Positions 8,311-64,000 of a stretch of 64,000 nt of DNA are shown here, piece after piece. Each line of letters opens with the position of its first letter. Position 1 is the stretch's first letter. Location of the stretch: assembly GCA_963699165.1 (NCBI GenBank), contig OY969413.1:141984-205983 (forward strand). The letters are read 5' to 3'. A program made the position numbers and the translations under genes. Source of the stretch: Candidatus Kaiserbacteria bacterium. GTDB taxonomy: Bacteria > Patescibacteriota > Minisyncoccia > Phycocordibacterales > Phycocordibacteraceae. Under the pieces are notes generated by a model that saw only the letters and a list, made by a program, of their open reading frames with translations, had not been told where the DNA came from and searched no databases.

Positions 8311-8351
8311 GCTAAATAACGAGGCAGTTGCTTACTGTTTCGACAAAACCA

Positions 8352-8994: not shown

Positions 8995-9648
8995 ATGCAG
9001 CGTTTAACGAGAGCGGAGTCCGGTTTGACCGCGGCGGAGTACGAAGTGCTGTCGCGGCTTTCAACGCCGCAAAAAATCCAGGACTTTCTCGATGCCATCC
9101 CGATGAATTGGGAAAAAAAGGGCGACACGCATATGTCGCCGCGTGCCGTTCTTCGAGCGAACAAGGCGCACTGCATCGAAGGTGCAATGCTCGCGGCGGT
9201 GGCGCTCTGGATTAACGGCGAGCCGCCTTTGCTTATGGATTTGTCGGCGCGGCTTGGAAAAGGAGATGTCGATCATGTTATTGCGCTCTACAAGCGCGGC
9301 TGATTTTACGGTGCTATCAGCAAAACCAATCACGCAAGCATTCGATTCCGCGACCCGGTGTACCGCACGCCGCGCGAACTGGCGCTTTCGTATTTTCACG
9401 AATGGTTTATGAACGAGACGGCCGAAAAAACGCTTGAATGCTATTCGAAACCGCTCGATATGCGGCGGCTCGGCTTCGGCTGGATTACCGCCGAAGAAGA
9501 TCTATGGAATGTGGATGATGCGTTGAATTCGCTCACTCATTACAATCTGGTGCCGAAAGGGAATTGGCGTCATGTTCGAAAAGCCGACCCGATGGAACTC
9601 AAAGCCGGCCGCCTCGTTGAGTGGCCGGAGTCCGACCCGCGCACCTAA
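8995..9648 (+). pseudogene. Conserved-looking hypothetical gene interrupted by a single in-frame TGA (9301-9303); two ORF halves in the same frame
   Basis: ORFs 8977..9303 and 9358..9648 are both in frame 1; read-through gives ..VDHVIALYKRG*FYGAISKTNHASIRFRDPVYRTPRELALSYFHEW.. The first ATG (8977) lies inside the upstream terminator, so start taken at MQRL (8995). Confidence 0.5.
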
Positions 9649-15362: not shown

Positions 15363-15407
15363 ATATCCTCGGTTATGAGGACTGCCAAATGTATCTGAAC
15401 TTATGCA
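14328..15407 (-). mobile_element. IS481-family insertion sequence copy 2 (TSD GTTTT)
   Basis: 1080 bp identical element; GTTTT at 14323-14327 and 15408-15412. Left flank shares 15 nt (CGGCAGTCAAGTTTT) with the flank of the IS fragment at 51752. Confidence 0.9.
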
Positions 15408-17797: not shown

Positions 17798-17852
17798 GCA
17801 ATCATGGTACTACACCCGTTCGGGGAGGCGGACGCACACCTGTTTACAGAAA

Positions 17853-18110
17853 TTACGATTCCGCGATTTTTGTACGGATGGTGAGCCAATCCATCACCTT
17901 TTTTCGATGGCGGTCGAGCGACCATTGTTCGCCTTCTTTGAAAAGCGATTTGTTTGTCTTTCGAAACTCGCGCAAAAGCTCCACTGACGCCTGCGGAAAT
18001 TGCTCGGGCAAGTCCTCGTTGTAAGAGGCGAGGAAATCGGAAAACGAAAGATGCTTCTCGCTCCGTTCTTTGTCCAAATCGGGAATTCTCATTACCTTTG
18101 ATAATACCAC
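17853..18110 (-). CDS. Hypothetical small protein
   Basis: 85-aa ORF followed by hairpin terminator at 18145-18170; no recognisable motif. Confidence 0.3.
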   Translation of the reverse strand: MVLSKVMRIPDLDKERSEKHLSFSDFLASYNEDLPEQFPQASVELLREFRKTNKSLFKEGEQWSLDRHRKKVMDWLTIRTKIAES

Positions 18111-18144
18111 GACTTTTTCAGAAAAGCAATTTTTAAAAAAGTAG

Positions 18145-18170
18145 AGCGCCTCCGGTATTACCGGAGGCGC
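18145..18170. terminator. Hairpin GCGCCTCCGGtattaCCGGAGGCGC
   Basis: Perfect 10-bp stem. Confidence 0.45.
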
Positions 18171-18175
18171 ATGAA

Positions 18176-18358
18176 TCAGGCGTGCTCTCGCGTCAGCCGA
18201 AGCAGTGCGGCACGATCTTTCAGGGTTGCGGCGGTTCCGTCATGTATGAACGGTGAACGTTCACCGCTGCGTGGACGAGGATGATCCGCCAGCCATTCCT
18301 CAAAGGCCTGTCGTGCCTTCGCGAGTTCCGGCGTTTCTCGTTCTGCAGAAATGGTCAT
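18176..18358 (-). CDS. Hypothetical small protein
   Basis: 60-aa ORF, no motif. Confidence 0.25.
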   Translation of the reverse strand: MTISAERETPELAKARQAFEEWLADHPRPRSGERSPFIHDGTAATLKDRAALLRLTREHA

Positions 18359-18499
18359 TTCCCTCTTTCCTCATAACAAAGGTGCGCAAACAAAAAAGTG
18401 CAGTCCTGCACTGGCGACACCATACAATATCGCTTGTAATATCGCAATTGTTTTCAAGAAATGAGGTGTGCATAAGATTTCTGAATAAAGTCATTTGTA

Positions 18500-18532
18500 T
18501 AAAAAAGAGTGAGCCGTCTGGGTAGACGGCTC
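18500..18532 (-). terminator. Rho-independent terminator for minus-strand gene ending at 18531
   Basis: GAGCCGTCTgggtAGACGGCTC preceded on the plus strand by an A-run (T-run on minus). Confidence 0.5.
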
Positions 18533-18758
18533 AATCATCGGGGTCCCCGTTTCTTAGTTGAGCGACCTGCTCGGCATCGGCATTCCACCACGGGCTTCCG
18601 ATGCTTTGTAAAGTTTCTTCCTCGGGGACGACCTCTGCTAATCTCCGGCTTGCGCTCTTTCGACTTCGACGACTCGCGAGTCGCTCACGCGCTCCGGGGT
18701 CAGTGTTTGCCTTCAATATGTCCCGACGCACGTGGTCCGGAATGTGTCTTTCCCCCAT
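18531..18758 (-). CDS. Hypothetical small protein
   Basis: 75-aa ORF ending at the terminator. Confidence 0.3.
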   Translation of the reverse strand: MGERHIPDHVRRDILKANTDPGARERLASRRSRKSASRRLAEVVPEEETLQSIGSPWWNADAEQVAQLRNGDPDD

Positions 18759-18840
18759 AGTACCCCATCTCCTTAGGAGGTGCTATCAGCTTTCCATCAT
18801 ACATAATATCGAAATATAGTCAAGTTTTTCGCCTGTGCAT

Positions 18841-18886
18841 AAAAAGCCCGTGGCGGGGTCGAAACCTCCGCCACGGGGGATGTTTT
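18841..18886. terminator. Bidirectional terminator
   Basis: AAAAAGCCCGTGGCGGggtcgaaacctCCGCCACGGGggatgTTTT. Confidence 0.5.
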
Positions 18887-19208
18887 AGTCGCGGTCCGGA
18901 TATCGATTCGAAAGGATATCCAGCACCATCTCGATTTTATCTACGACTCGGTGCGGCAATTCGAATTGTTGCGCAATTTCCCTCGGGTCGAAACGGCAGT
19001 CGATGACCTTCGGACTTAGGTGCCTAATGCCCGTTCCATCCGAAATGAGCATGTCGGCTCTGCGGTGCCTTCTGATGGTGCCGTTCAAACGGTCTGCATG
19101 GGAACACAAAACTAAATCGAACGGAAGATTTTGTTTCGCCGCGAGCCACTTAATGCTTGCAAAGCTGCCGGATCTCGCCGTTACGACAATGACTGTTGTT
19201 CTGCGCAC
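18885..19208 (-). CDS. Hypothetical protein
   Basis: 107-aa ORF (MRRTTVIVVTARSGSFASIKWL...); no confident family. Confidence 0.35.
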   Translation of the reverse strand: MRRTTVIVVTARSGSFASIKWLAAKQNLPFDLVLCSHADRLNGTIRRHRRADMLISDGTGIRHLSPKVIDCRFDPREIAQQFELPHRVVDKIEMVLDILSNRYPDRD

Positions 19209-19300
19209 GCAAACTCCTCACTCTGCGAATGTGCTTTTCGAAAAACGTCGCATTCGGATTTCTTCTCGTCGCATCGTAATATATATAGTATGATGCGGGT

Positions 19301-26538: not shown

Positions 26539-27599
26539 GGCGACTAGTCTTTTGAATTCGAACGTTTGATACATTGAGCGAATGAAAAAACCTCCGGCGG
26601 TGCGCACTTCACAAGGTCCGAACGAGACGAAATACAGATACTGTTAGCGAAGGGATACTCTTTGCAAGATGTCGGAGATGCACTCGACCGACCGAAGAGT
26701 GTCATATGGTACGAGACGCAAAAGAAGAGGAAGGGACGGCCGTATGATGCTGCATATGCGCATCACATTTCATACGTACGAAGGAAATACAGCCGAGCGG
26801 TCGGCAAGATGATTGCTCTCGACCCGAAGCTCCGGAAGTTCATCGAGGCGCATCTCTTCGACGATCAGTCGCCCGAAAACATCTCACTTCGATTGAAGCG
26901 GATCGAGAAGGATATCGGATATGCTTCATCCTCGGCTATACGCCGATATATCAAGAGCCCGTATGGCAGACGGATCGAGTCGCATCGAGCAAAGTTATTC
27001 AAGAAGAGGCGACGCTCTCGGCCATCGAAACCACACATTGCCGACAAGCGCCTGATCGACAAACGACCGAGCAAAATCAACAAGCGATGGGGATTGGGTC
27101 ACATGGAGGGCGACTTCATCGTGTCGGGCAAGAGCGGTCAAGGCATCATTCTTGGTCTGCGGGATCGCAGGGTGCGCAAAAACCTGCTGGAGCGGATCCT
27201 GCCAGTGTCAGTGCGAAACGTGGAGCGAGCGCTTCGCAGAATGAAAAAGCGGTATCCCGAGATGCAGACCATCACATTCGACAACGATATTCTCTTTCTC
27301 GAACACAAACGGCTAGAGAAGGTGCTTGGGGTGAAGATATATTTCTGTCATGTGCATGCGCCATGGGAGAAGCCATCAATCGAGAATCTGAACAAGGACT
27401 TGCGGCGGTACATCCCGAAAAGCTCGGATATTTCAAAGTATTCAAAAAGATTTGTGCAGAAACTCGAAGCAAAGATGAATCGCCGCTTCATGGATGTGCT
27501 CGGTTCACTCACGCCAGATGAGGCGTATGCTGCGGAAAAGAAACAACGCGCTCAGAGGAGCGCAAAAAACCGTCGTTCGAATTGAGGGGTTTGGGTGCC
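26539..27599 (+). mobile_element. IS30-family insertion sequence copy A (1061 bp, TSD CGC)
   Basis: Identical to copies at 35958..37018 and 46880..47940 (both minus). Ends GGCGACTAGTCTTTTGAATTCGAACG / CGTTCGAATTGAGGGGTTTGGGTGCC form imperfect IRs. CGC at 26536-38 and 27600-02. Confidence 0.85.
26662..27585 (+). CDS. IS30-family transposase
   Basis: 307 aa; N-terminal HTH, DDE core HMEGDFIVSGKS ... ITFDNDILF ... CHVHAPWEKPSIENLNKDLRRY. Confidence 0.9.
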   Translation: MQDVGDALDRPKSVIWYETQKKRKGRPYDAAYAHHISYVRRKYSRAVGKMIALDPKLRKFIEAHLFDDQSPENISLRLKRIEKDIGYASSSAIRRYIKSPYGRRIESHRAKLFKKRRRSRPSKPHIADKRLIDKRPSKINKRWGLGHMEGDFIVSGKSGQGIILGLRDRRVRKNLLERILPVSVRNVERALRRMKKRYPEMQTITFDNDILFLEHKRLEKVLGVKIYFCHVHAPWEKPSIENLNKDLRRYIPKSSDISKYSKRFVQKLEAKMNRRFMDVLGSLTPDEAYAAEKKQRAQRSAKNRRSN

Positions 27600-28554: not shown

Positions 28555-29598
28555 TCAGCGACATGTACGCGTCCAGTACTTTTGGCAGTCCCCGACGGTT
28601 AATGTACACACAATATACCGCAAGGGGGACACCATGCCGAGCGACTGGTGCGGGCGTTTGGTGTTGTACCAGATCAGCCAGTCGACAAGCTTCAGATTGA
28701 AGGAATGAATATCGTCCCGCAGCAGGCCCCGATTCAGCATGATGAAGTCCTCGGAGACGGTGCGATTGAATCGTTCGACGTGGGCATTCATCTTGGGAGT
28801 GCGGGGGCGGGTGTGAAAGTGCGTGAGCCCGAGTTCGGCACAGGCATCCTCGAAGTGTTTGGCGAACTCGCTCCCGTTGTCGGTCTGCAACTCGTCGATA
28901 TCGAAGGGGCAAACCTCGATGACTCGGCGAAGGAAGTCGTCCGCGCTTCTCGACGAGTGGTTCGTATACGCGCCCGCAAAGGCGAACTTCCGCTCCACGT
29001 CCACTGCCGTGAGGACGTACCGCTTCACGCCGTCGATGAAGCGGACGACGGTATCGAGCTCCATGCCGCGCTTGCCGGTGCGGCGAAGCTTGGTACGGCG
29101 TTTCTGCGGTGTTTCCGTGTGATTGCCCGTACGTGCGTGGAACGAGAGCCGGCTCTGCTGCGGGAGCAGACCGCGGTTCTTCAAATCCAGAATGACCCGC
29201 CCAACGTATGACTCCGACACGGAGTACCCTTCTTCGCGCAGGAGAACGGCAAGCTTTGCTTTCCCAAGCCGGGGATGCGCCTGTCGTTCGCGGATGATGA
29301 AATCCTCGACCTCGGGCAGAACAGTCCTCCTTCGACGCGCCTTCGGCGCAGTGCTCTTCGGGTCAAGTGCATCAATGCGGCCCTCGTGGGCTTTGAGTTC
29401 CTCCTTCCAGCGATACAAGGTGCGCTCCGAGGTGCCAAAGGCGTCGTATGCGGCCTCCGTCCCGTGCATGTCCCAGAATCCCAATATCTTCACCCGTCTG
29501 TCGACTTCCTTTGGTTTCCGCATATGCCGCAATCGTATCGTCCTTTCCCACATGCTCAACCAGCCCTTCGTACCCCTGAAATTGCTTCTGATGTGCAT
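28555..29598 (-). CDS. IS481-family transposase (copy 3)
   Basis: Same protein; one M-to-H substitution near N-terminus (MHIRSNFRG). Confidence 0.85.
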   Translation of the reverse strand: MHIRSNFRGTKGWLSMWERTIRLRHMRKPKEVDRRVKILGFWDMHGTEAAYDAFGTSERTLYRWKEELKAHEGRIDALDPKSTAPKARRRRTVLPEVEDFIIRERQAHPRLGKAKLAVLLREEGYSVSESYVGRVILDLKNRGLLPQQSRLSFHARTGNHTETPQKRRTKLRRTGKRGMELDTVVRFIDGVKRYVLTAVDVERKFAFAGAYTNHSSRSADDFLRRVIEVCPFDIDELQTDNGSEFAKHFEDACAELGLTHFHTRPRTPKMNAHVERFNRTVSEDFIMLNRGLLRDDIHSFNLKLVDWLIWYNTKRPHQSLGMVSPLRYIVCTLTVGDCQKYWTRTCR

Positions 29599-29643
29599 AT
29601 ATCCTCGGTTATGAGGACTGCCAAATGTATCTGAACTTATGCA
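28564..29643 (-). mobile_element. IS481-family insertion sequence copy 3 (TSD CGACA)
   Basis: CGACA at 28559-28563 and 29644-29648; inserted about 50 bp upstream of tsaC start. Confidence 0.9.
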
Positions 29644-29696
29644 CGACAACGTGTTGGACGCGGGACAATTTCCTCACATCTGATATGTTTTCTGGA

Positions 29697-30242
29697 ATGA
29701 AAGAAGCGGAAATGCTGCTGGAAGGGAAGATGGGCGTGATTCCGACGGATACGATTTACGGGCTTGTTGCGTCGGCGCGCGACGGCGAAGCCGTCGCGCG
29801 CGTCTACACCCTCAAAGGCCGCACGCCCGCAAAGCCCTGTATCATTCTCATTTCTTCGCTTGGCGACCTCGCGGAATTCGGCATCTCGTTGACTCCCGAG
29901 CGCGAAAAAATCCTGTCGGAGTATTGGCCGGGGCCGGTCAGCATCGCGATGAAATGCGGCACTGACGTGCCGGAATATTTACACCGCGGCACGCACACGC
30001 TGGTGTTTCGGTTGCCGAGCGATGATCGGCTTGTTGATTTACTGAAAAAAGCGGGCCCGCTCATTGCGCCGAGCGCAAATCCCGAAGGGCAACCACCCGC
30101 AGCAACAATCGACGAGGCAAAAAAATATTTCGGCGGCAACGTTGACTTTTATGTGGACGGCGGAATTCTTGATGGCGCGCCGTCGACTCTGGTTTCATCG
30201 GACGAGCAAAACACGATTGCTGTTTTGCGCAAAGGCAGATAA
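29697..30242 (+). CDS. tsaC: L-threonylcarbamoyladenylate synthase (TsaC/YrdC/Sua5 family)
   Basis: VIPTDTIYGLVASA ... KGRTPAKPCIILI ... WPGPVSIAMK ... PSANPEGQPP = YrdC motifs. Confidence 0.8.
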   Translation: MKEAEMLLEGKMGVIPTDTIYGLVASARDGEAVARVYTLKGRTPAKPCIILISSLGDLAEFGISLTPEREKILSEYWPGPVSIAMKCGTDVPEYLHRGTHTLVFRLPSDDRLVDLLKKAGPLIAPSANPEGQPPAATIDEAKKYFGGNVDFYVDGGILDGAPSTLVSSDEQNTIAVLRKGR

Positions 30243-35957: not shown

Positions 35958-37018
35958 GGCACCCAAACCCCTCAATTCGAACGACGGTTTTTTGCGCTCC
36001 TCTGAGCGCGTTGTTTCTTTTCCGCAGCATACGCCTCATCTGGCGTGAGTGAACCGAGCACATCCATGAAGCGGCGATTCATCTTTGCTTCGAGTTTCTG
36101 CACAAATCTTTTTGAATACTTTGAAATATCCGAGCTTTTCGGGATGTACCGCCGCAAGTCCTTGTTCAGATTCTCGATTGATGGCTTCTCCCATGGCGCA
36201 TGCACATGACAGAAATATATCTTCACCCCAAGCACCTTCTCTAGCCGTTTGTGTTCGAGAAAGAGAATATCGTTGTCGAATGTGATGGTCTGCATCTCGG
36301 GATACCGCTTTTTCATTCTGCGAAGCGCTCGCTCCACGTTTCGCACTGACACTGGCAGGATCCGCTCCAGCAGGTTTTTGCGCACCCTGCGATCCCGCAG
36401 ACCAAGAATGATGCCTTGACCGCTCTTGCCCGACACGATGAAGTCGCCCTCCATGTGACCCAATCCCCATCGCTTGTTGATTTTGCTCGGTCGTTTGTCG
36501 ATCAGGCGCTTGTCGGCAATGTGTGGTTTCGATGGCCGAGAGCGTCGCCTCTTCTTGAATACCTTTGCTCGATGCGACTCGATCCGTCTGCCATACGGGC
36601 TCTTGATATATCGGCGTATAGCCGAGGATGAAGCATATCCGATATCCTTCTCGATCCGCTTCAATCGAAGTGAGATGTTTTCGGGCGACTGATCGTCGAA
36701 GAGATGCGCCTCGATGAACTTCCGGAGCTTCGGGTCGAGAGCAATCATCTTGCCGACCGCTCGGCTGTATTTCCTTCGTACGTATGAAATGTGATGCGCA
36801 TATGCAGCATCATACGGCCGTCCCTTCCTCTTCTTTTGCGTCTCGTACCATATGACACTCTTCGGTCGGTCGAGTGCATCTCCGACATCTTGCAAAGAGT
36901 ATCCCTTCGCTAACAGTATCTGTATTTCGTCTCGTTCGGACCTTGTGAAGTGCGCACCGCCGGAGGTTTTTTCATTCGCTCAATGTATCAAACGTTCGAA
37001 TTCAAAAGACCAGTCGCC
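35958..37018 (-). mobile_element. IS30-family insertion sequence copy B (TSD AAA on plus strand)
   Basis: AAA at 35955-57 and 37019-21; inverted relative to copy A. Confidence 0.85.
35972..36895 (-). CDS. IS30-family transposase (copy B)
   Basis: Same 307-aa protein with one K/V substitution (RAKVFKK). Confidence 0.9.
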   Translation of the reverse strand: MQDVGDALDRPKSVIWYETQKKRKGRPYDAAYAHHISYVRRKYSRAVGKMIALDPKLRKFIEAHLFDDQSPENISLRLKRIEKDIGYASSSAIRRYIKSPYGRRIESHRAKVFKKRRRSRPSKPHIADKRLIDKRPSKINKRWGLGHMEGDFIVSGKSGQGIILGLRDRRVRKNLLERILPVSVRNVERALRRMKKRYPEMQTITFDNDILFLEHKRLEKVLGVKIYFCHVHAPWEKPSIENLNKDLRRYIPKSSDISKYSKRFVQKLEAKMNRRFMDVLGSLTPDEAYAAEKKQRAQRSAKNRRSN

Positions 37019-46879: not shown

Positions 46880-47940
46880 GGCACCCAAACCCCTCAATTC
46901 GAACGACGGTTTTTTGCGCTCCTCTGAGCGCGTTGTTTCTTTTCCGCAGCATACGCCTCATCTGGCGTGAGTGAACCGAGCACATCCATGAAGCGGCGAT
47001 TCATCTTTGCTTCGAGTTTCTGCACAAATCTTTTTGAATACTTTGAAATATCCGAGCTTTTCGGGATGTACCGCCGCAAGTCCTTGTTCAGATTCTCGAT
47101 TGATGGCTTCTCCCATGGCGCATGCACATGACAGAAATATATCTTCACCCCAAGCACCTTCTCTAGCCGTTTGTGTTCGAGAAAGAGAATATCGTTGTCG
47201 AATGTGATGGTCTGCATCTCGGGATACCGCTTTTTCATTCTGCGAAGCGCTCGCTCCACGTTTCGCACTGACACTGGCAGGATCCGCTCCAGCAGGTTTT
47301 TGCGCACCCTGCGATCCCGCAGACCAAGAATGATGCCTTGACCGCTCTTGCCCGACACGATGAAGTCGCCCTCCATGTGACCCAATCCCCATCGCTTGTT
47401 GATTTTGCTCGGTCGTTTGTCGATCAGGCGCTTGTCGGCAATGTGTGGTTTCGATGGCCGAGAGCGTCGCCTCTTCTTGAATAACTTTGCTCGATGCGAC
47501 TCGATCCGTCTGCCATACGGGCTCTTGATATATCGGCGTATAGCCGAGGATGAAGCATATCCGATATCCTTCTCGATCCGCTTCAATCGAAGTGAGATGT
47601 TTTCGGGCGACTGATCGTCGAAGAGATGCGCCTCGATGAACTTCCGGAGCTTCGGGTCGAGAGCAATCATCTTGCCGACCGCTCGGCTGTATTTCCTTCG
47701 TACGTATGAAATGTGATGCGCATATGCAGCATCATACGGCCGTCCCTTCCTCTTCTTTTGCGTCTCGTACCATATGACACTCTTCGGTCGGTCGAGTGCA
47801 TCTCCGACATCTTGCAAAGAGTATCCCTTCGCTAACAGTATCTGTATTTCGTCTCGTTCGGACCTTGTGAAGTGCGCACCGCCGGAGGTTTTTTCATTCG
47901 CTCAATGTATCAAACGTTCGAATTCAAAAGACCAGTCGCC
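46880..47940 (-). mobile_element. IS30-family insertion sequence copy C (imperfect TSD)
   Basis: Identical 1061 bp; flanks give TTG/GTG (2 of 3) in element orientation; about 28 bp upstream of the KGG gene start. Confidence 0.85.
46894..47817 (-). CDS. IS30-family transposase (copy C)
   Basis: Identical to copy A protein. Confidence 0.9.
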   Translation of the reverse strand: MQDVGDALDRPKSVIWYETQKKRKGRPYDAAYAHHISYVRRKYSRAVGKMIALDPKLRKFIEAHLFDDQSPENISLRLKRIEKDIGYASSSAIRRYIKSPYGRRIESHRAKLFKKRRRSRPSKPHIADKRLIDKRPSKINKRWGLGHMEGDFIVSGKSGQGIILGLRDRRVRKNLLERILPVSVRNVERALRRMKKRYPEMQTITFDNDILFLEHKRLEKVLGVKIYFCHVHAPWEKPSIENLNKDLRRYIPKSSDISKYSKRFVQKLEAKMNRRFMDVLGSLTPDEAYAAEKKQRAQRSAKNRRSN

Positions 47941-51751: not shown

Positions 51752-51895
51752 TGTACGCGTCCAGTACTTTTGGCAGTCCCCGACGGTTAATGTACACACA
51801 ATATACCGCAAGGGGGACACCATGCCGAGCGACTGGTGCGGGCGTTTGGTGTTGTACCAGATCAGCCAGTCGACAAGCTTCAGATTGAAGGAATG
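51752..51895 (-). mobile_element. 144-bp fragment (transposase-stop end) of the multi-copy IS481 element, truncated by the IS3 element
   Basis: Identical to the first 144 bp of the full copies; diverges exactly where the IS3 inverted repeat begins. Confidence 0.85.
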
Positions 51896-51923
51896 TACCG
51901 ACCCCTATTCTTCAGACCACTTC

Positions 51924-52736
51924 CTAGACGAGTGAAGATAGTGTACGGGTGATGTGCGATTTCGCAAACTCTCTCGGTGCCATCTTGAGTGTTGAGTGTA
52001 TACGCACGGTGTTGTACCGGTGAATTGTCTGATAGATTTCAGCAACAAGTTCACCAAGCGTATCGAAGCGATTGGGATCGCCCAGATCAGTTTTGAATTT
52101 TCCATAGAACGATTCTTGGTACCCGTTCTCCCACGGACAGCCCTTTTTTGAGCGAGAGATGCTGATGCCGAAATTGATGAGCATCTCTCGGAAGGATGCG
52201 GCATTGTATTCCACTCCGTTGTCGCTGTGAAAGATGGTGGGACGAGGATGGTTGAGAAGTGCCGCGCACAATGCCTGCGTCACAAGTACGGTTCCACCTC
52301 GCGTACCAATGGCGAGCCCAACGACACTTCGAGTGTATACGTCCATGGTGGTTGCCACACGAATGTCTTTCCCTTTGAAATACACATGAGTGAAATCAGC
52401 GACCCATGCTTGATGCGGATAGGCGGGTACAATCCGCATCAGGAGATTTGGATACTCCACGGCTTGTTTCCTTGATTTCCTCCACCGTCTTCCTCTTCTT
52501 CGATATGCTTTGATACCAAAGAGTCGCATGACTCTTTGAACCTTCTTTTTGTTCTCCTTGAGATACAGGGCAACTCTCCGGTATCCATACGAAGGAAACT
52601 CTCGAAGGACTTCTTCAATACGGCATTTGAGTGCCCAGTCTTTGTCAGGCTTCTTCTTTTGATACCAGAAGGTGGAACGAGCTATACCAAGAGTACGCGC
52701 TGTTGTGCGCGTACCAATCGGAGATTCTTTGCTCAC
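51924..52736 (-). CDS. IS3-family transposase OrfB (DDE integrase core)
   Basis: WVADFTHVY ... HSDNGVEY ... GCPWENGYQESFYGKFKTD. Confidence 0.85.
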   Translation of the reverse strand: MSKESPIGTRTTARTLGIARSTFWYQKKKPDKDWALKCRIEEVLREFPSYGYRRVALYLKENKKKVQRVMRLFGIKAYRRRGRRWRKSRKQAVEYPNLLMRIVPAYPHQAWVADFTHVYFKGKDIRVATTMDVYTRSVVGLAIGTRGGTVLVTQALCAALLNHPRPTIFHSDNGVEYNAASFREMLINFGISISRSKKGCPWENGYQESFYGKFKTDLGDPNRFDTLGELVAEIYQTIHRYNTVRIHSTLKMAPREFAKSHITRTLSSLV

Positions 52737-52990
52737 TTCTTTTTTTGGGTTTCAGACAGCTTGAGCGTCATGAGTCCAACAAGACGAAGGAGTTCGTCAT
52801 TCTCTTTTCGAAGTCTCGCAATCTCAAGAACAGATGCGGTACCGTCTTGCACTTTCGCACCAAGCCAGCCATAGATGGTGGTCTCGTGGATACCATGCTC
52901 TTTGGCCGCTTGGGCGACAGTGACACCATCGTTCTTGATTCGATTAATGATTTGTTCCTTCACCTCAGGAGCGATGCGGTATTGCTTCAT
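52733..52990 (-). CDS. IS3-family transposase OrfA (HTH)
   Basis: 85 aa; KEQIINRIKNDGVTVAQAAKEHGIHETTIYGW HTH, leucine-zipper tail; overlaps orfB by 4 bp in the -1 frame. Confidence 0.8.
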   Translation of the reverse strand: MKQYRIAPEVKEQIINRIKNDGVTVAQAAKEHGIHETTIYGWLGAKVQDGTASVLEIARLRKENDELLRLVGLMTLKLSETQKKK

Positions 52991-53037
52991 ATGACGTCAT
53001 TCTAGCGGTTAATCCCGTCTAGAACATGGTCTGAAAT

Positions 53038-54387
53038 TTGGGGGTCAGGTCAGATGCAGGAGAGATAACCTATATGATACGCACGGGTGTCATTGAAGAC
53101 CTCAAGCTCGCCGCCTATCATTTTGAAAACACGCCCGAGGGTATTTGGATGCTTCAAATGGCACTCTCACAATCTCAATACGAAAGCGCAAAGAAGGGGC
53201 GCGATGTGAAGCGTGGACTTATGCAGAAAGCAAAAATGGGTGTTTATCCTGCGCCCGCGTCCATCGGCTATATGAATGACAAGCACGCCGAAAAGGGATA
53301 CAAGACCATCCACGCGGACCCCGAACGCTTTGACATCGTGCGGAAGATGTTTGACCTGATGCTCGCAGGTGCGCATACGCCACCGCGTATTTTGGAGATT
53401 GCGACGAAAGAGTGGGAGCTACGGATGCCGAAAGGAAAACCTTTGAGCCGAAGCAATGTCTATCTGCTTTTTACACGCGAGTTCTACTACGGCGAGTTTG
53501 AGTACCCTGTAGGAAGCGGCAACTGGCACAAAGGCGTCCATAAGCCGATGATTACGCGCGAGGAGTTTGACCGCATACAAGTATTGCTCGGCAGGAGAAG
53601 CAACCCACGCCAGAAACGGCACGAGATTATGTATCGCGGTCCGATAAAGTGTGGCGAGTGCGGCTGTATGATTACTGCCGAGGAAAAAACGAAGTATCAG
53701 AAAAACGGCAATAAGCACGATTACACCTACTATCATTGCACCAAGCGTAGGGACCCGAACTGCAAGCAACCCCCGATTGAAGAAGCCGAGCTTGAAAAGC
53801 AGATTGCCAAAGAGGTTGGCTCTATAGAGATACCCGAGGACTTCACAAAATGGGCTCTGGCACGCCTTCGGGAGATGAATACGCAGGAGGTATCTGACCG
53901 AGACCGCATCTACGGCTCGCAGAGGCGCGAATACGAGGGATGTGTGCGTAAGATAGATAACCTCATTGATATGCGTGCCAATAACGAACTCACAGAGGAT
54001 GAGTTCAAGGGCAGAAAGCAAACACTCCTTGCTGAAAAGGAGCGACTTGCCTCACTGCTCAAGGATACTGACAAGCGCGTAGAGAACTGGCTTGAGATTG
54101 CCGAGCGCGGTTTCAACTTTGCAGAGAAAGCGGCGGCTATTTTTGCCGAAGCGAAGGAGAATGACGACATTGAGACGCGCAAAGAGATTTTTGCCTCATT
54201 AGGTTCGGACCTCATCTTGAAAGACAAAATACTAAGCATTGACTGGGATAATCTGCTGTTCCCGATACAAACAATGGCAAAAGAAGTCCGCGCCGTTCAC
54301 GCAGAGTTAGAACCTGTAGAAAACTCAGTAAATACAAAGGATTATGGCGAACTCTACTCTCAAAATCCTATCTTGCTCCGGCGGTAG
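53038..54387 (+). pseudogene. N-terminally truncated large serine recombinase (Recombinase domain + zinc-ribbon + coiled coil; resolvase catalytic domain missing)
   Basis: GVYPAPASIGYMNDKHAEKGYKTIHADPERFDIVRKMFDLMLAGAHTPPRILEIATKEWELRMPKGKPLSRSNVYLLFTREFYYGEFEY is the Recombinase domain (PF07508 type). CGECGCMITAEEKTKYQKNGNKHDYTYYHCTKRR is the zinc ribbon. The ORF begins inside the IS3 right end, so the Ser catalytic domain is absent. The 3' end overlaps the tRNA-Asn 3' end. Confidence 0.65.
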
Positions 54388-54447
54388 GATTCGAACCTAC
54401 AACCAACGCCTTAACAGGGCGCTGCTCTACCATTGAGCTACACCGGA
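54376..54447 (-). tRNA. tRNA-Asn (anticodon GUU)
   Basis: Reverse complement reads TCCGGTG ta GCTC AATGGTA GAGC a GCGCC CTGTTAA GGCGT tggtt GTAGG TTCGAAT CCTAC CGCCGGA g: 7-bp acceptor, D-arm, anticodon loop CUGUUAA, T-arm with TTCGAAT. Confidence 0.8.
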
Positions 54448-54481
54448 ATATATAGCGAACTTATGCATTCTAACCGAAAAA

Positions 54482-55534
54482 TCATAGTCCGCAATGGTAT
54501 GTACGCGTCCAGTACTTTTGGCAGTCCCCGACGGTTAATGTACACACAATATACCGCAAGGGGGACACCATGCCGAGCGACTGGTGCGGGCGTTTGGTGT
54601 TGTACCAGATCAGCCAGTCGACAAGCTTCAGATTGAAGGAATGAATATCGTCCCGCAGCAGGCCCCGATTCAGCATGATGAAGTCCTCGGAGACGGTGCG
54701 ATTGAATCGTTCGACGTGGGCATTCATCTTGGGAGTGCGGGGGCGGGTGTGAAAGTGCGTGAGCCCGAGTTCGGCACAGGCATCCTCGAAGTGTTTGGCG
54801 AACTCGCTCCCGTTGTCGGTCTGCAACTCGTCGATATCGAAGGGGCAAACCTCGATGACTCGGCGAAGGAAGTCGTCCGCGCTTCTCGACGAGTGGTTCG
54901 TATACGCGCCCGCAAAGGCGAACTTCCGCTCCACGTCCACTGCCGTGAGGACGTACCGCTTCACGCCGTCGATGAAGCGTACGACGGTATCGAGCTCCAT
55001 GCCGCGCTTGCCGGTGCGGCGAAGCTTGGTACGGCGTTTCTGCGGTGTTTCCGTGTGATTGCCCGTACGTGCGTGGAACGAGAGCCGGCTCTGCTGCGGG
55101 AGCAGACCGCGGTTCTTCAAATCCAGAATGACCCGCCCAACGTATGACTCCGACACGGAGTACCCTTCTTCGCGCAGGAGAACGGCAAGCTTTGCTTTCC
55201 CAAGCCGGGGATGCGCCTGTCGTTCGCGGATGATGAAATCCTCGACCTCGGGCAGAACAGTCCTCCTTCGACGCGCCTTCGGCGCAGTGCTCTTCGGGTC
55301 AAGTGCATCAATGCGGCCCTCGTGGGCTTTGAGTTCCTCCTTCCAGCGATACAAGGTGCGCTCCGAGGTGCCAAAGGCGTCGTATGTGGCCTCCGTCCCG
55401 TGCATGTCCCAGAATCCCAATATCTTCACCCGTCTGTCGACTTCCTTTGGTTTCCGCATATGCCGCAATCGTATCGTCCTTTCCCACATGCTCAACCAGC
55501 CCTTCGTACCCCTGAAATTGCTTCTGATGCGCAT
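54482..55534 (-). CDS. IS481-family transposase (copy 4)
   Basis: Same protein, one D-to-Y substitution (VDEAYDGIEL on opposite-frame shadow corresponds to a single nt change). Confidence 0.85.
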   Translation of the reverse strand: MRIRSNFRGTKGWLSMWERTIRLRHMRKPKEVDRRVKILGFWDMHGTEATYDAFGTSERTLYRWKEELKAHEGRIDALDPKSTAPKARRRRTVLPEVEDFIIRERQAHPRLGKAKLAVLLREEGYSVSESYVGRVILDLKNRGLLPQQSRLSFHARTGNHTETPQKRRTKLRRTGKRGMELDTVVRFIDGVKRYVLTAVDVERKFAFAGAYTNHSSRSADDFLRRVIEVCPFDIDELQTDNGSEFAKHFEDACAELGLTHFHTRPRTPKMNAHVERFNRTVSEDFIMLNRGLLRDDIHSFNLKLVDWLIWYNTKRPHQSLGMVSPLRYIVCTLTVGDCQKYWTRTYHCGL

Positions 55535-55579
55535 ATATCCTCGGTTATGAGGACTGCCAAATGTATCTGAACTTATGCA
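54500..55579 (-). mobile_element. IS481-family insertion sequence copy 4 (TSD TGGTA)
   Basis: TGGTA at 54495-54499 and 55580-55584; inserted 52 bp from the tRNA. Confidence 0.9.
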
Positions 55580-55603
55580 TGGTAGAATATGCGCGGCAGA
55601 CAT

Positions 55604-57992: not shown

Positions 57993-59303
57993 TCAGTCGG
58001 TGCGCGCTTCGATGACCGCGCCCAATTTTTGCAGGCGAAGCACGATGTCTTCGTAGCCGCGATTGATGCTGTACACGTTGCGCAGCATCGAACGGCCCTT
58101 CGCCGCGAGCATGCCGACGAGAATGATGGTCGCGGGTCGGAGCGCAGGCGGGCAGATTACTTGCGCGGCTTTCAACCGGGTCGGACCTTCAATCGAAATG
58201 CGGTGCGGGTCATGGAGCGTGGTCGTCGCGCCGAGTCGGTCGAGTTCGGTGTAATAAATCGCACGCTTTTCATACGACCAGTCGTGAATCAAGGTCGAGC
58301 CCTTTGCCTGCGTTGCGATGACGGCGAAAAAGGGAAGATTGTCGATATTGAGCGCAGGGTAGGGGCGCGCGTGGATTTTTTCCGGAAATGCCGTCAGCTC
58401 GGACTCATATATATGTATGTCCGCAAGTTTGGTAATGCCGTTTTCGGAGACGCCCGCGTCCGTAACGGTAAATCGCATACCCATTTTTTCCAACACCAAA
58501 AGCTCGACCTCTAGAAATTCAATCGGCGCTTTCGCAATCGTAATCTCGCTGCCGGTCGTGGCCGCCGCCGCAATAAAAAACATTGCGTCGGTCGGGTCCT
58601 CCGCAATGCTGTATTCAATGTCTTTATGAATGTCTTCGATGCCGGTGACGACAAGCGTGCTTGTGCCGATGCCCTTGATGCCGACGCCGAGCGCTTGCAG
58701 ATAGCCGCAAAGTTCCTGCACCTGATAATTTGCGGAACAGTATTTTATGGTGCTCGTGCCCGGAATGCGCGCCGCTGCGAGAAGCGCGTTTTCGGTCGCG
58801 GTGTCGCTCGCTTCATAGAGAATGACGGTCGCCGGCTTGAGTTCGCCGTGCGAAATTTGATAGCGGTCGGTGCGCGTCTCGATATGAACGCCGAATTTTT
58901 CGAGCGCCATGAGATGCGGGCGCACGGAGCGCAGCCCGAGCGTGCAGCCGCCCGATTGCGGCAGTTCGAATTCGTTGAAAAGGTGAATGAGCGAACCGAT
59001 GAACATCAAGATGCTCCGTGTTTTTGTCGCGGCCACGCGGTCGATGCTCGCGAGCGACAAATGTTTCGGCCGTTGAATGACGACCGTCGAGCCGTTCCAT
59101 TCAACGCTCACGCCGATGGAAACGAGCACCTCGACGAGGCGTTTGACCTCTTCGATTTTCGGCATATGCGTGAGCGTTGTGCGGCCGCTGTTCAAAAGCG
59201 ATGCGGCCAAGAGCGCGACCGCGCCGTTTTTCGAGCGGCTCGTCTCGACGGTGCCCGAAAGTTTTGTGCCGCCCTCGATTACGAAATTGAGTTCTCCTTG
59301 CAT
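57993..59303 (-). CDS. murA: UDP-N-acetylglucosamine 1-carboxyvinyltransferase
   Basis: LNFVIEGGTKLSGTVETSRSKNGAVALLAASLL ... PQSGGCTLGLRSV (catalytic Cys loop) ... LRNVYSINRGYEDIVLRLQKLGAVIE. Start MQGELNF chosen; ORF track begins 23 codons earlier. Confidence 0.85.
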   Translation of the reverse strand: MQGELNFVIEGGTKLSGTVETSRSKNGAVALLAASLLNSGRTTLTHMPKIEEVKRLVEVLVSIGVSVEWNGSTVVIQRPKHLSLASIDRVAATKTRSILMFIGSLIHLFNEFELPQSGGCTLGLRSVRPHLMALEKFGVHIETRTDRYQISHGELKPATVILYEASDTATENALLAAARIPGTSTIKYCSANYQVQELCGYLQALGVGIKGIGTSTLVVTGIEDIHKDIEYSIAEDPTDAMFFIAAAATTGSEITIAKAPIEFLEVELLVLEKMGMRFTVTDAGVSENGITKLADIHIYESELTAFPEKIHARPYPALNIDNLPFFAVIATQAKGSTLIHDWSYEKRAIYYTELDRLGATTTLHDPHRISIEGPTRLKAAQVICPPALRPATIILVGMLAAKGRSMLRNVYSINRGYEDIVLRLQKLGAVIEARTD

Positions 59304-59430
59304 GACCGTATCGTACCATTTCATGCCGCACTTTTGCACAAGTGCATAATTTGACCTTGCGCGAGTCGCCAAAGCGGGTGTTGATAACTCCGATTGGCCG
59401 CCGGTATGCAGGTATACTTCGAACTAGGGT

Positions 59431-60729
59431 ATGTTACGGATGGAAAATCTCGATAAGAAATTATTCGCATTGTGCCTCTGCACAGTAGCGTTTGCAGTCG
59501 TCCCCTTGTTGGTGTTTGCACAAAGCGGCGCTGCCACGCCGACTTCGAGAATGCAGGTCATCGGGTCGGTTGGCGTATTTGATGCTTCGGTTACGCAAAA
59601 TACGGGAAGTTTGGAAGTGAAATTTACAATCTCCAACGGCCAGGGATCGCAGGGAGACATCCGCTATGCAGTAGCACTTTACTCTTTGAATGCGTCCGGT
59701 CAGCACGCAAAAGTCGATGAGTATGTCGCACCCGATGCGGTATCCCTTTCTCCGGGCCAGAGCACTCAAAAGACGGTGACCTATCAGCCGTCGCCGTCTC
59801 TATTAGGTACCTACCAGGTTTGGGTCGAAGTCCAGAACTCTAGCGGGATGCCTTTCAGTGCCGTTAATGCGGGTACGATTACTCTTTCCGCTTCTCCTTC
59901 CGGACAGGATAACTCCGTCGAATTTCCTCCCCAAGCGTGTGTTCTTCTGGTCGATTCCGACCCGGCAAAGGGGACGTTCAGCATGGAACAGGGTGTAGAT
60001 ATTCTTCCGAGCGAAAGTTTGGAAGCAGAATGCACACTTCGGACGCATTATTCCGCTTCCGTGGATCTTACTCCTTCGTTCACAACCTATGCCCGCACGC
60101 AGTTCGGGTCCGAGGTTGGAACGCAAACCGGCAAAACCGTCACGGTTAATCCGACCGGCGATGCGACATTTCTCTTTTCCATACCGATTCAATCGAAACC
60201 GCAGGCATACGATGTCGATATATCGCTTGTGGATGCGTCCGGCAAAACGGTTTCCAACACCGTGACCGCACATTACGTGCTTCGAGGTATATCGGGGACG
60301 ATACAAAACGCCGTTTTAGACGCAAATCGATATTCGCCCGGCGATACTGCCAAGGCAACGGTGAGCTGGTACGGTTCTGCGGATAGTTTCCCCGGGTCCA
60401 GATACGGTTCGGCATCATCAACTCAGAACTTCACGGTGCAACTTGCGCTAGATAACGGCAGCGGCGGAGATTCCTGCGGTTCCGTCGTATCGCAGCATGT
60501 ACCGCAGAATGGGCGAACTGCCCTTATCGGAATACCCGTGCATTCAAGTTGCGACAATCCTTCTTTAAAAGTCACACTTGAGGATGAAAAGGGGAATATT
60601 CTTGATCAAAAGACCTTTGGCACTGTCACTCCTTTGTTTGTTTTCATCGCCGTATCAGGCCCCTTTGATGGCGGCTGCCGCCATCCTCATTTTCGTCGCA
60701 GTATTGATAGCCCTATCGGTGTTTATTAA
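59431..60729 (+). CDS. Secreted surface protein with C-terminal TM anchor
   Basis: Signal peptide LFALCLCTVAFAVVPLLVFAQSGAATP; Ser/Thr-rich beta-rich body; C-terminal AAAILIFVAVLIALSVFIKRRNAKF. Confidence 0.5.
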   Translation: MLRMENLDKKLFALCLCTVAFAVVPLLVFAQSGAATPTSRMQVIGSVGVFDASVTQNTGSLEVKFTISNGQGSQGDIRYAVALYSLNASGQHAKVDEYVAPDAVSLSPGQSTQKTVTYQPSPSLLGTYQVWVEVQNSSGMPFSAVNAGTITLSASPSGQDNSVEFPPQACVLLVDSDPAKGTFSMEQGVDILPSESLEAECTLRTHYSASVDLTPSFTTYARTQFGSEVGTQTGKTVTVNPTGDATFLFSIPIQSKPQAYDVDISLVDASGKTVSNTVTAHYVLRGISGTIQNAVLDANRYSPGDTAKATVSWYGSADSFPGSRYGSASSTQNFTVQLALDNGSGGDSCGSVVSQHVPQNGRTALIGIPVHSSCDNPSLKVTLEDEKGNILDQKTFGTVTPLFVFIAVSGPFDGGCRHPHFRRSIDSPIGVY

Positions 60730-60759
60730 AAGAAGGAATGCTAAATTCATGGAGCCGGT

Positions 60760-63549
60760 ATGATGAAAAAATGCGCTGCAATTATGTCCACGTTAAAAAA
60801 AATGCCGGCATCGCAAAAAGGGATTCTCATACTCGCGCTTATTGCCGTTTCGGCGTATGTGGTTACGACGCATTCTTCATTTGCTCAATCAACAGGCAAT
60901 CAGGGAACTTGTAACAACTATTAGTGCACCTTCCAGGCGACATTTCCTCAAAACACAACCAGTTGGGGAGCGCAAACCGTTGTGACCGACACCACACTTA
61001 CCGCGACATTCGACCGTCAAGACAGAAGTTATTATCCCGGTCAAACGGTCACCATAACGGGATTTGCTCCGCAGCTTTCGGTTTGCTCGAATGGGTGGCC
61101 GATGTCCATTGACACCCTATTTACTCAAAACGGTATTCCGACAAACGTCTCTTCAGGCAACTCGGCCTGTTTTAATTCGGCGACCAATATATATCAAGGC
61201 GAGATTATAAATACGTCGAATTCGAATAACCCGCTCATTGATACCATGAATGCGGAATGGTGCGGGCAAATGAATGTCCCGACTAATGCTCAAACGAAGG
61301 TAATTACCGACGGCAGCACTTTAACAGACGGAAACTGGCTGGAGTGGATGGGTCCCGTCAAAGCGCCCGGCTGGGGATGTTCGACGAACGGTCCCGCGAC
61401 GACTATATTTATTGCCGCCAATCAATCCGCACTGCAAAATCTCGCGGTGTCCAAAGGCAGCGGTATATGCAACCAGGGCGAAGAGGACGTCTATTCATAC
61501 TCGTTCACGGTGCCATACTCTGCAACCGTCGGCCAAGATCAAACGGTCGGCATACGAATGAGCACCGACAATGCCGATACTTATGACGCTACGGGCGCCA
61601 TGATTTACCATGTGGTTGCGCCGCCCGCTTCTACATGTGCTCTACCGTGGGGTGGATATATCGGCAACGGACAGTCGGTTACTGCGTATCAATCCGCGCA
61701 AGTCACGTCGCCGGCAACTCCCGTTTCGGAGGTGCGCACATGCAATAACGGAACTTTGAGCGGCATCGGCTATACCAATCAAAATTGCACGGTCGTCGGA
61801 AGTTCCGGGTCGCCAACCGCATCGCTGCTTGGCAGCGCGTCTTCGAGTGGTCCGTTTTCAAGTATCGTAAATATCTTAAACGGGCAACACGCATTTCTGC
61901 AATGGAGCTCAAGCGGTGCTGCCTCATGTTCGGCAATAGGCACTGCATTTTCATTGCCGGGCGGTTCGACCGCGGGCACTCTTGATTTGGGTCCGCTATC
62001 CTCGTCGGGAGCATATTCTGTCTCTTGTTCAGGTTCCGGCACCGGAACAAGCAACGGCACCGGCGGCTCGCAGACCGTATATCCCACAAATACCACCACA
62101 TACACAGGCACCTTTACCGGACCAAAAGGCACTAACGTTTGTTCGGCAACAGTGAACGTTTCAAGCGGAACGGCAAACCTTACGACTCCTTCAATTGCGC
62201 AGATGTCTCCTATTGCCACATATACATCCGCCTCTTCTGTCTCCGCTACACTTCCAAGTATTCCCGCCGCAGGCGACACGCTCGTGGCTATGGTCGAAAC
62301 GTCTAACAACACCGTCACCGCGCCGACCGGTTGGACGGTGCAAGATAACGAGACCGGCTTCAGCGGTTTTGCCGCTCTGACGGGCGTTGTGGGGAAAAAT
62401 GGTCTTACCGCAGCAAAGACATACACGTTCGACACCGGAGCGTGCGGCACGGCACAGATTTTCGATGTTTCGGGCGCCGGAAAAACAATTATTACATCGA
62501 CGGATTCGTCTAACTCCGGGCCATCCTATCCGCGCATGCTTCAAGTCCCGATTAGCAACGGTTTGCTGCTTACCGGTTGGGGCGGATGGGAGGTGAATTC
62601 GGCAAACGCGTGGGTTTCCATCGCCGACTCGCTTCCGGGCGGACAAACTTCGAGCGTTTTAGGTTATTTGCTGAACAGCCCGATTAGCGCATCTTGCGGC
62701 GGCGGAAGATTCGCATACCGCTCCTCGGACATAACGAGTGAACCGTTCAATGCGGCGCAACCGTTTACCAATACCGCACAAGTTACGATAAACCCGGTCC
62801 TTGACACGGGCTACAACACGAGCGGCCAATTAATATGGCTGTCGCCGGTAATTTCAACACCTCCAACTTGCGCTATTACTGCGTCGCCAAACTCAATAAA
62901 TTCCGGACAACCTTCACTTCTAACGTGGACTTCAATGAACGCGGCGAGCGGGACGATTACCGCTGTCATCGGCAACGGAACGTCCGGGTCGCAAATCGTC
63001 TTCCCGAACGGCAACACGACGTACACGGGAACATTCGTCGGTGACAGCGGAACTGCGAACTGCTCAGTGACCGTTCTCGTTGGCGGTTCATCCGGTACTG
63101 TTGCTCCGGCTTGCACGTTGACCGCCTCGCCGGGATCGATTACCCCCGGACAGGCGGCGACGCTCACCTGGAGTTCGACCAATGCGACCTCCGGGACAAT
63201 CCCCAATCTTCAAACCTCGGCACCGGCCATTTCGGCGCCGGTAACGATAACGGTCGCCCCGTCGAGCGATTCTCTCACTGCAACGCCGAATCGCGTAGCG
63301 CTCGGGAGCGCGACGATTCTCTCGGCTTACGCCACGAGCACGAGCGTGTGCTATCTGTACGCCAACGGCACGCCGATAAAAACCTGGAATGCGACCGGCG
63401 GCATCGTGAATGTGCCCTCCTATACGTCGCCCCCCGTACAAACGCAGACAACTTTCCAGCTCCTGTGCAACGGCCAAAGCAATCCGAATTGGTATTCGAC
63501 GTCCACGCAGTTGGTGAATGTCACCTCAAGCAATTTCCAGGACTTCTAG
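60760..63549 (+). pseudogene. Large Thr/Ser/Gly/Asn-rich Ig-repeat adhesin-like protein whose signal peptide is separated from the 855-aa body by one in-frame TAG (60922-60924)
   Basis: ATG 60760 encodes MMKKCAAIMSTLKKMPASQKGILILALIAVSAYVVTTHSSFAQS..NNY then TAG, then the same frame continues CTFQATFPQNTTSWGAQTV and the ORF-track protein (GTG 60982). Internal repeats SQTVYPTNTTTYTGTFTGPKGTNVCSATVNVSSG / SQIVFPNGNTTYTGTFVGDSGTANCSVTVLVGG. Confidence 0.55.
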
Positions 63550-63648
63550 AAGTTCGTGTACGCGGACAGGTTGACTCATCTGCTCGATTCGGTAGCATGA
63601 GTACCGGGCCGATGCCGCATGTGCGGTACGGCAATGTATTGAAAGGGT

Positions 63649-63978
63649 TTGTCAATGTTGTTTTTTCTATCGCCCGCGTGGCGCATTCCTCTCACCATCG
63701 TGGCTGCGGTGGTCGGTTGCTCGACGGCAGCAGGCGCGCACGGTTCCAATCTCTGGCTGAACGAGGACGTGGTGTTCGGAATCGTCGCCGGCTTCCTTGC
63801 GTGCTCAGTTTTCGCCGAATTGGAGAGGCGGCGGTACGGCAAGAAGTGGACGATGTTCTATTCGGCCACCCTTTTCTTACTGGCCTTCCTCTCGGGATTG
63901 GGCGGGCTGGCGGTCGCGATAGCTTTGACGGCTTTCGTGACCATCATTTCCTTGGGCGGGGAAAGAGCCCCGTCTTAA
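63649..63978 (+). CDS. Small multi-TM membrane protein, hypothetical
   Basis: 109-aa ORF, four hydrophobic segments. Confidence 0.35.
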   Translation: MSMLFFLSPAWRIPLTIVAAVVGCSTAAGAHGSNLWLNEDVVFGIVAGFLACSVFAELERRRYGKKWTMFYSATLFLLAFLSGLGGLAVAIALTAFVTIISLGGERAPS

Positions 63979-64000
63979 AGCGCCCGAGAACCGAAGCCCC

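Follow-up and report, generated by a model that had tools for sequence, protein, structure and literature searches.

In the 64,000-nucleotide stretch of contig OY969413.1 analyzed here (hereafter the window), which comes from a Minisyncoccia bacterium (Patescibacteria, also known as the candidate phyla radiation or CPR) with a genome of ~1 Mb and a longest contig of 993 kb, two adjacent genes for putative surface proteins, gene 1 (59431-60763) and gene 2 (60760-63549), are each interrupted by a point lesion. We consider it likely that in gene 2 a nonsense codon (TAG 60922) has cut a genuine signal peptide from a body that was once exported, that gene 2 is now a pseudogene or at least crippled, that its partner gene 1 has also lost its membrane anchor, and that these losses are due to drift in a clonal population laden with insertion sequences (IS). 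The uncoupling of signal and body had been proposed in an earlier note on this DNA, and is upheld by the TAG being a normal stop codon, by its presence in independent assemblies and by the unbroken coding sequence in relatives.

The open reading frame (ORF) that starts at ATG 60760 translates into the 54 residues MMKKCAAIMSTLKKMPASQKGILILALIAVSAYVVTTHSSFAQSTGNQGTCNNY and is closed by TAG 60922-60924, after which the same frame is open from 60925 to the TAG at 63547-63549, i.e., for 874 codons. The 54-residue product has the features predicted for a Sec-type signal peptide cleaved by signal peptidase I, with a KK/KK n-region, the core ILILALIAVSAYVV and small residues at positions -3 and -1. 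Its 13-residue Kyte-Doolittle maximum (2.82, at ILILALIAVSAYV) falls within the range of the signal peptides of orthologues in relatives (2.4-3.3), and its putative cleavage site SFA/QS resembles those of the neighboring secreted proteins encoded at 59431-60729 (VFA/QS) and 8328-8924 (AMA/QS). Past the TAG, the first in-frame start is GTG 60982, which opens the longest ORF with a start codon (855 residues); as every 19-residue Kyte-Doolittle window of this body scores 1.25 or less, it is without signal peptide or membrane helix. These results agree with the earlier note, which had ascribed a signal peptide to ATG 60760 and a long body without export signal to the same frame beyond it, starting at a GTG. 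The stop itself is where the note had placed it, but the stated distance of 18 codons was wrong: the TAG is codon 55, 11 codons past ...FAQS and 20 past the hydrophobic core. The description of the body as a Thr/Ser/Asn-rich Ig-repeat protein also stood in part only. Thr (14.5%) and Ser (13.7%) are the leading residues, but the third is Gly (10.8%) and not Asn (7.3%), and the sole Pfam match to an Ig-like family, Big_11 (PF18200), reached 19.3 bits and thus stayed below the gathering cutoff of 25, so that Ig-like is used here as a description and not as a family assignment. No Pfam or NCBIfam family matched the body at threshold, and a PDB sequence search with it gave no match; an AlphaFold model of the N-terminal domain of gene 2, computed without an alignment, had a predicted local distance difference test (pLDDT) score of 33 and was unusable. 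The computed chance that two such segments share a frame, and that 19 codons pass without another stop, is ~0.20. The in-frame layout alone is therefore no evidence by itself, and the weight comes from comparison.

The 855-residue protein is also encoded on contigs of GCA_049279115.1 ("Minisyncoccia bacterium") and of the Logan assemblies SRR27973122 and ERR10755936, and the identity of these three contigs to the window is 100% over lengths of 8.5, 6.3, and 4.0 kb, respectively, with the TAG and the gene 1 frameshift included. The whole stretch from 59992 to 64000 is base-for-base the same in all three assemblies (L001-L003; L- and P-numbers are labels of loci and proteins in the present analysis). 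The short-read contigs of the same strain end at IS copies, as true repeats would cause, and in three assemblies other than that of the window the N-terminal stub is called as a separate gene of 54 or 46 residues. No intact allele was found among 5.8 billion clustered proteins, where the corresponding cluster has a single member, the 855-residue form, and the junction with NNN at the stop had 0 matches in a scan of JGI metagenome DNA, a collection from which the strain is absent. The 20 genes called on L001 end with TAA (9), TAG (6), or TGA (5), and it is therefore genetic code 11, with no reassignment of TAG, that operates here. TAG terminates fmt, a gene for an aminoacyl-tRNA synthetase, the PBP2 gene, and the 855-residue ORF itself. 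A sense reassignment of TAG and decoding as pyrrolysine were accordingly rejected, given that TAG is a frequent terminator; scans of the window with Pfam and NCBIfam revealed no pyl-like genes, and the sole tRNA gene of the window is that for Asn (GTT).

Direct alignment across the TAG found no orthologue, whereas a comparison of gene order around gene 1, used in place of such an alignment, shows continuity. Among the GTDB genomes of Patescibacteria, gene 1 was identified at 23 loci. The two genes are separate in nine relatives (L006/L013, L007/L026, L010, L011, L018, L024, L027, L033, and L035), with gene 2 starting from 20 nt before to 27 nt after the stop of gene 1 and its signal peptide running unbroken into a first domain with the sequence N-[LT]-x-K-x-x-Y-x-P-G-E-x-I...C-x-N. 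The Y-x-P-G-x-x-I...C-x-N motif is present in all nine, although in degenerate form in L010, L011, L018, and L035. In ~12 other relatives (L012/P0069, L014-L017, L019-L022, L025, L032, and L031, a locus that ends before the motif), both genes are fused in the order of gene 1 body, membrane helix, Lys/Arg loop, a second hydrophobic segment with an AxA-like site, and the same domain; L030 also has the fused layout, with no clear motif. The window carries the motif as TLTATFDRQDRSYYPGQTVTITGFAPQLSVCSNGWPMS at residues 79-116, which matched gene 2 of L006 by BLASTP with an E value of 8e-5 and the profiles of 5 and 10 relatives by hhalign with probabilities of 83 and 80% (E values of 8.7e-6 and 1.4e-5, respectively). 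Furthermore, L024 has Cys51-x4-Cys56 at the positions of the window and without a stop, and the Tyr of its motif is at position 88, compared to 91 in the window. Given that signal and domain are continuous in ~20 relatives, the signal is taken to have belonged to gene 2 ancestrally and to be conserved there, and the TAG, which falls inside this continuous coding sequence, to disrupt the gene. The first ~225 residues of the body are more elusive: a word-indexed search matched only Ig-like repeats beyond residue ~225, and an exhaustive HMMER search with the 225 residues after the TAG against 1.84 billion representatives returned the protein itself and two irrelevant matches, P0061, with a short KVITDGSTL motif in common, and P0062, a spurious repeat protein. 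The two-part module is kept across Adlerbacteria, Moranbacteria, Taylorbacteria, Paceibacteria, and others, either as overlapping genes or joined by a hairpin of helix, Lys/Arg loop, and signal peptide, and had no sequence match in Pfam, NCBIfam, or PDB.

Gene 1 has 7 protein homologues of 300-742 residues with 31-41% identity, six of them of 432-452 residues; the 300-residue homologue is without the N-terminal part, and the 742-residue homologue is a fusion with the next gene. Alignment of the C-termini revealed that all 7 homologues encode a membrane helix and a Lys/Arg tail in frame, while the window encodes such an anchor, AAAAILIFVAVLIALSVFIKRRNAKFMEPV, in the +1 frame only. With one base removed from the CCCCTTT tract, gene 1 of the window ends in ...AVSGPLMAAAAILIFVAVLIALSVFIKRRNAKFMEPV, which aligns with the helix and Lys/Arg tail of the homologues (for instance, the repaired ...AVSGPLMAAAA... 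aligns with ...ASPRMFEIV... of P0064), and the hydrophobicity of the tail is 3.03, compared to 1.25 as the gene is now read. The stop codon of the repaired gene 1, TGA 60761-60763, overlaps ATG 60760 as ATGA, which supports ATG 60760 as the authentic and translationally coupled start of gene 2; L006 shows the same 4-nt overlap between its two genes. AlphaFold predicted three beta-sandwich domains for gene 1 (pLDDT 77; predicted template modeling score 0.70), with residues 400-432 disordered. Foldseek searches with this model returned generic tandem FN3/Ig folds only, such as RbmA and contactin FN3, and a PDB sequence search with the gene 1 profile gave no match. A programmed +1 frameshift in gene 1 was rejected, as 7 of 7 homologues are in frame and CCC is followed in the zero frame by TTT, an ordinary and not a slow codon. 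We also noticed an 8-bp GC-rich hairpin at 60667-60685 (GATGGCGGC-TGC-CGCCATC) directly past the tract, which is explained by the Ala-rich GCN coding of the anchor and is probably incidental.

A third lesion is TGA 9301 in the gene for a conserved Patescibacteria protein. The best 120 of its 5382 homologues are 71-81% identical, are mostly 217 residues long (range 211-240) and span both halves of the interrupted gene, and 106 of these 120 have Gly at the column of the TGA. This coincidence is accounted for by a single GGA-to-TGA change; decoding of TGA as Gly was rejected because TGA ends 5 of the 20 genes. The same truncated product of 102 residues is encoded in GCA_049279115.1. The suggestion in the earlier note that the window holds a second or third pseudogene is thus strengthened by the position of this TGA at a Gly column and extended by the frameshift in gene 1.

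The mobile elements of the window occupy ~14.9% of its length. The four IS481-like copies are 99.4-100% identical and have intact 5-bp target-site duplications; their best family match is IS481, at 181.6 bits below the NCBIfam cutoff of 224, and they are therefore called IS481-like. The three IS30-family copies, whose transposase scored 168 bits against an NCBIfam cutoff of 80, are 99.8-99.9% identical. Matching 3-bp flanks (CGC and AAA) were found at two of them, and the flanks of the third (AC vs. CA) were mismatched at the boundaries used. Together with an IS481-like fragment, one further divergent IS481-like ORF, one IS3 element and a remnant of a serine recombinase, these copies bring the inventory close to the ~11 IS copies counted in the earlier note. 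All seven full-length IS481-like and IS30 copies checked are intergenic, and selection against gene disruption is therefore still acting. None of these transposase types was found in 178 kb from 26 loci of relatives, a baseline biased by the loss of IS copies from short-read metagenome-assembled genomes (MAGs), and a scan of GTDB genomes with an IS481-like 46-mer had 0 matches in a collection from which the strain is absent.

Shine-Dalgarno motifs are nearly absent at gene starts on L001 and L004 (window 37-64 kb), where 27 of 30 starts are ATG, and a TATAAT-like box precedes the ATG of many genes by 6-9 nt; this pattern suggests widespread leaderless or non-Shine-Dalgarno initiation. A comparison of Shine-Dalgarno motifs between ATG 60760 and GTG 60982, the latter with GGGGAG 11 nt upstream, was uninformative, as such motifs are almost never used in this genome. 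A scan of 59200-64000 for promoters and terminators gave fewer sites than the same scan of shuffled sequence.

Taken together, genes 1 and 2 appear to represent, in this genome, a two-part surface module with a wide distribution among Patescibacteria. The product of gene 1 would be secreted, with three beta-sandwich domains, and held in the membrane by its C-terminal helix and Lys/Arg tail, and that of gene 2 would start with a signal peptide, followed by a short linker with Cys residues, a first Ig-like domain that is conserved, and a body specific to the lineage. Both genes seem to have been hit by recent inactivating point lesions in this strain. A 1-nt insertion at 60660-60666 would have put the anchor of gene 1 out of frame, leaving its product exported and unanchored, and in gene 2 a single-base change in the linker would have given rise to TAG 60922. 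Since TAG has its usual function as a terminator in this genome, translation from ATG 60760 would yield a signal-peptide stub of 54 residues, and any product from GTG 60982 would be without an export signal and stay in the cytoplasm. Initiation at this GTG is probably weak, because Shine-Dalgarno motifs are hardly used and 27 of the 30 neighboring genes start with ATG. The module would therefore be gone from the cell surface, and with it, probably, its function. The nonsense lesion appears to be recent because the frame of 874 codons is still open, and drift in a clonal, IS-laden population is the probable cause, given a third nonsense lesion and an IS burst within the same 64 kb. Several points weigh against this explanation. 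Gene 2 has no close orthologue, and its linker is too variable among relatives for the ancestral residue at the TAG to be named; the homology to gene 2 of relatives rests on a motif of ~37 residues and on gene order; the three matching assemblies may derive from a single clonal population sequenced in just two read sets; readthrough may occur at a low level, or a functional remnant of gene 2 may persist; and the two lesions are only 262 nt apart and each removes a membrane-targeting element, which could indicate selection.

The last of these points leads to the alternative that we regard as improbable yet the least so among those considered, namely that loss of surface display was selected, as an escape from a phage or host factor using the module as receptor or because attachment is needless in enrichment culture, with the two lesions as its footprint. 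Consistent with selected loss are the observations that precisely the targeting elements have been stripped, the anchor from gene 1 and the signal from gene 2, while the remaining 4 kb of coding sequence is intact, that the same clone was recovered in at least two sequencing projects, and that the avoidance of genes by the IS copies argues against a general relaxation of selection. The footprint consists, however, of two events only, and two random lesions in 4.1 kb would lie that close in ~13% of cases by chance (an estimate), so that the clustering is not significant. In addition, the third nonsense lesion is in an unrelated, conserved gene of cytoplasmic type, which fits drift, and the inactivation of one partner gene allows its counterpart to decay.

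The other alternatives would leave the product of gene 2 intact or make the layout a natural one, and all are much less probable than selected loss. Decoding of the TAG as pyrrolysine, or its readthrough owing to a suppressor tRNA or to its context, such that a full-length exported protein persists, is very unlikely: although 874 codons are open past the TAG, and a suppressor could be encoded elsewhere in the genome since the window has one tRNA gene only, the same codon ends 6 of the 20 neighboring genes, housekeeping genes and this ORF among them, no pyl-like gene was detected in the window, and the companion lesions, a frameshift and a TGA, are beyond rescue by readthrough of TAG. Still less credible is a design of two genes, one for a small secreted or membrane peptide of 54 residues and the other for a cytoplasmic protein of 855 residues starting at the GTG. 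Gene callers do annotate the locus in this way, and GGGGAG precedes the GTG at 11 nt, but this motif weighs little where Shine-Dalgarno sequences are almost unused and 27 of 30 genes start with ATG; moreover, all ~20 relatives join a hydrophobic signal to the homologous domain, and the body is made of Cys-containing Ig-like modules of extracellular type. Least probable of all is an artefact of sequencing or assembly that hides a sense codon. The support for the TAG does rest on assemblies and not on raw reads, but an NCBI MAG and two Logan assemblies of different runs are 100% identical to the window over 4.0-8.5 kb at both lesions, and the substitution that creates a TAG is atypical of homopolymer error. 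The severing of the signal peptide by a nonsense codon, together with the loss of the anchor in gene 1, is fresh but ordinary gene decay and involves no new mechanism.

Fresh nonsense and frameshift pseudogenes together with IS expansion have been described in bottlenecked or recently host-restricted bacteria (PMC3091646, PMC6020299). The window is similar to these bacteria in its point lesions in otherwise intact ORFs, in its IS bursts, with copies that are nearly identical and target-site duplications that are intact, and in having surface or adhesin genes among the losses. It differs in that the genome, at ~1 Mb, is already minimal rather than a large genome of free-living type at the start of reduction, and in that the seven full-length IS copies checked lie between genes and not within them. 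Sodalis glossinidius, Bordetella pertussis with IS481, Shigella, and Mycobacterium leprae are examples of the pattern. The lineage of this Minisyncoccia (CPR) bacterium is presumably already reduced and partner-dependent. The proposal in the earlier note of early reductive decay, for example after a recent shift to host association, is plausible for the window but a poor fit to an already minimal CPR lineage, and the data would be explained equally well by an IS burst during a clonal bottleneck or bloom or by a selected loss of the module. A combined scenario, in which an active IS bloom and fresh pseudogenes make up a second wave of erosion in a minimal ~1-Mb Minisyncoccia genome and the paired lesions record the selected shutdown of a surface module that may mediate host attachment or phage reception, is in our view as improbable as selected loss itself.

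The module is similar to secreted surface proteins and adhesins of the Big/FN3 type in its Sec-type signal, its tandem beta-sandwich modules, its richness in Thr, Ser, and Gly and its Cys residues, but unlike them it matches no Pfam or NCBIfam family at threshold and no solved structure by sequence; an adhesin function is suggested by this architecture. The in-frame TGA exactly at a Gly-conserved column is reminiscent of genetic code 25 (UGA = Gly) of Gracilibacteria and Absconditabacteria, and the in-frame TAG inside a long ORF of UAG recoding as pyrrolysine. Unlike in those systems, TAA (9 of 20), TAG (6), and TGA (5) all serve as stops of conserved genes here. CPR genomes are generally regarded as streamlined, and near-identical IS copies over ~15% of the sequence together with three point-disrupted genes in 64 kb are unusual for them. 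Literature searches found nothing on these accessions and nothing specific on IS and pseudogenes in Patescibacteria. The disruption of gene 2 adds a new case to a known class of events, and its interest lies mainly in the two-part module and the unusual IS load. The NCBI annotation of the 855-residue ORF as an intact hypothetical protein should be changed to flag it as disrupted, and so should that of its frameshifted neighbor. The module exposed by the comparison, in which a membrane-anchored stack of three beta-sandwich domains is coupled or fused to a signal-bearing Ig-like protein, is apparently uncharacterised and a candidate for the cell-cell attachment machinery of episymbionts. If its load of IS copies and pseudogenes holds genome-wide, the strain would offer a natural example of an ultra-small genome in which erosion is still under way.

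Table 1. Disrupted genes, their parts, and mobile elements in the window.
Feature	Position	Strand	Remarks
Conserved ~217-residue Patescibacteria protein	8995-9648	+	Interrupted by TGA 9301-9303; 5382 homologues, no Pfam family
Gene 1 as now read	59431-60729	+	432 residues; own signal peptide, three beta-sandwich domains, aberrant tail of 23 residues
CCCCTTT tract	60660-60666	+	One extra base (C or T) shifts the reading frame of gene 1
Displaced C-terminal membrane anchor of gene 1	60665-60763	+	+1 frame, within ORF 60578-60763
Orphaned N-terminus of gene 2	60760-60921	+	Basic n-region, core ILILALIAVSAYVV, likely cleavage SFA/QS, then 12 mature residues
In-frame TAG	60922-60924	+	Codon 55, between both Cys of the C-x4-C linker motif
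Open codons between TAG and GTG	60925-60981	+	19 codons, formerly mature linker; without in-frame start codon
Body of gene 2	60982-63549	+	855 residues, GTG start; NCBI hypothetical protein WAN50_02715
First-domain motif TLTATFDRQDRSYYPGQTVTITGFAPQLSVCSNGWPMS	60994-61107	+	Common to gene 2 of relatives
IS481-like element	10508-11587	-	rve and HTH_32 domains
Further IS481-like copies	14328-15407, 28564-29643, 54500-55579		Fragment at 51752-51895
IS30-family element	26539-27599	+	1061 bp
Further IS30-family copies	35958-37018, 46880-47940	-	
IS3 element	orfA 52733-52990, orfB 51924-52736		
Large serine recombinase	53038-54387		Without the catalytic N-terminus of ~100 residues; beside tRNA-Asn
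tRNA-Asn	54375-54447		Only tRNA in the window

Some of the mobile elements are concentrated at 51752-55600, where an IS481-like fragment, the IS3 element, the serine recombinase, and a full IS481-like copy form a nest of mobile-element debris by the tRNA-Asn gene. The region 17800-19300 holds 1.5 kb with short ORFs only (71-107 residues) and without an Rfam match, and could consist of decayed genes or of small genes. The IS481-like copy at 28564-29643 lies directly 5' of a Sua5/TsaC gene (29625-30242), with its end overlapping the start of the annotated ORF, and may have replaced the promoter of this gene.

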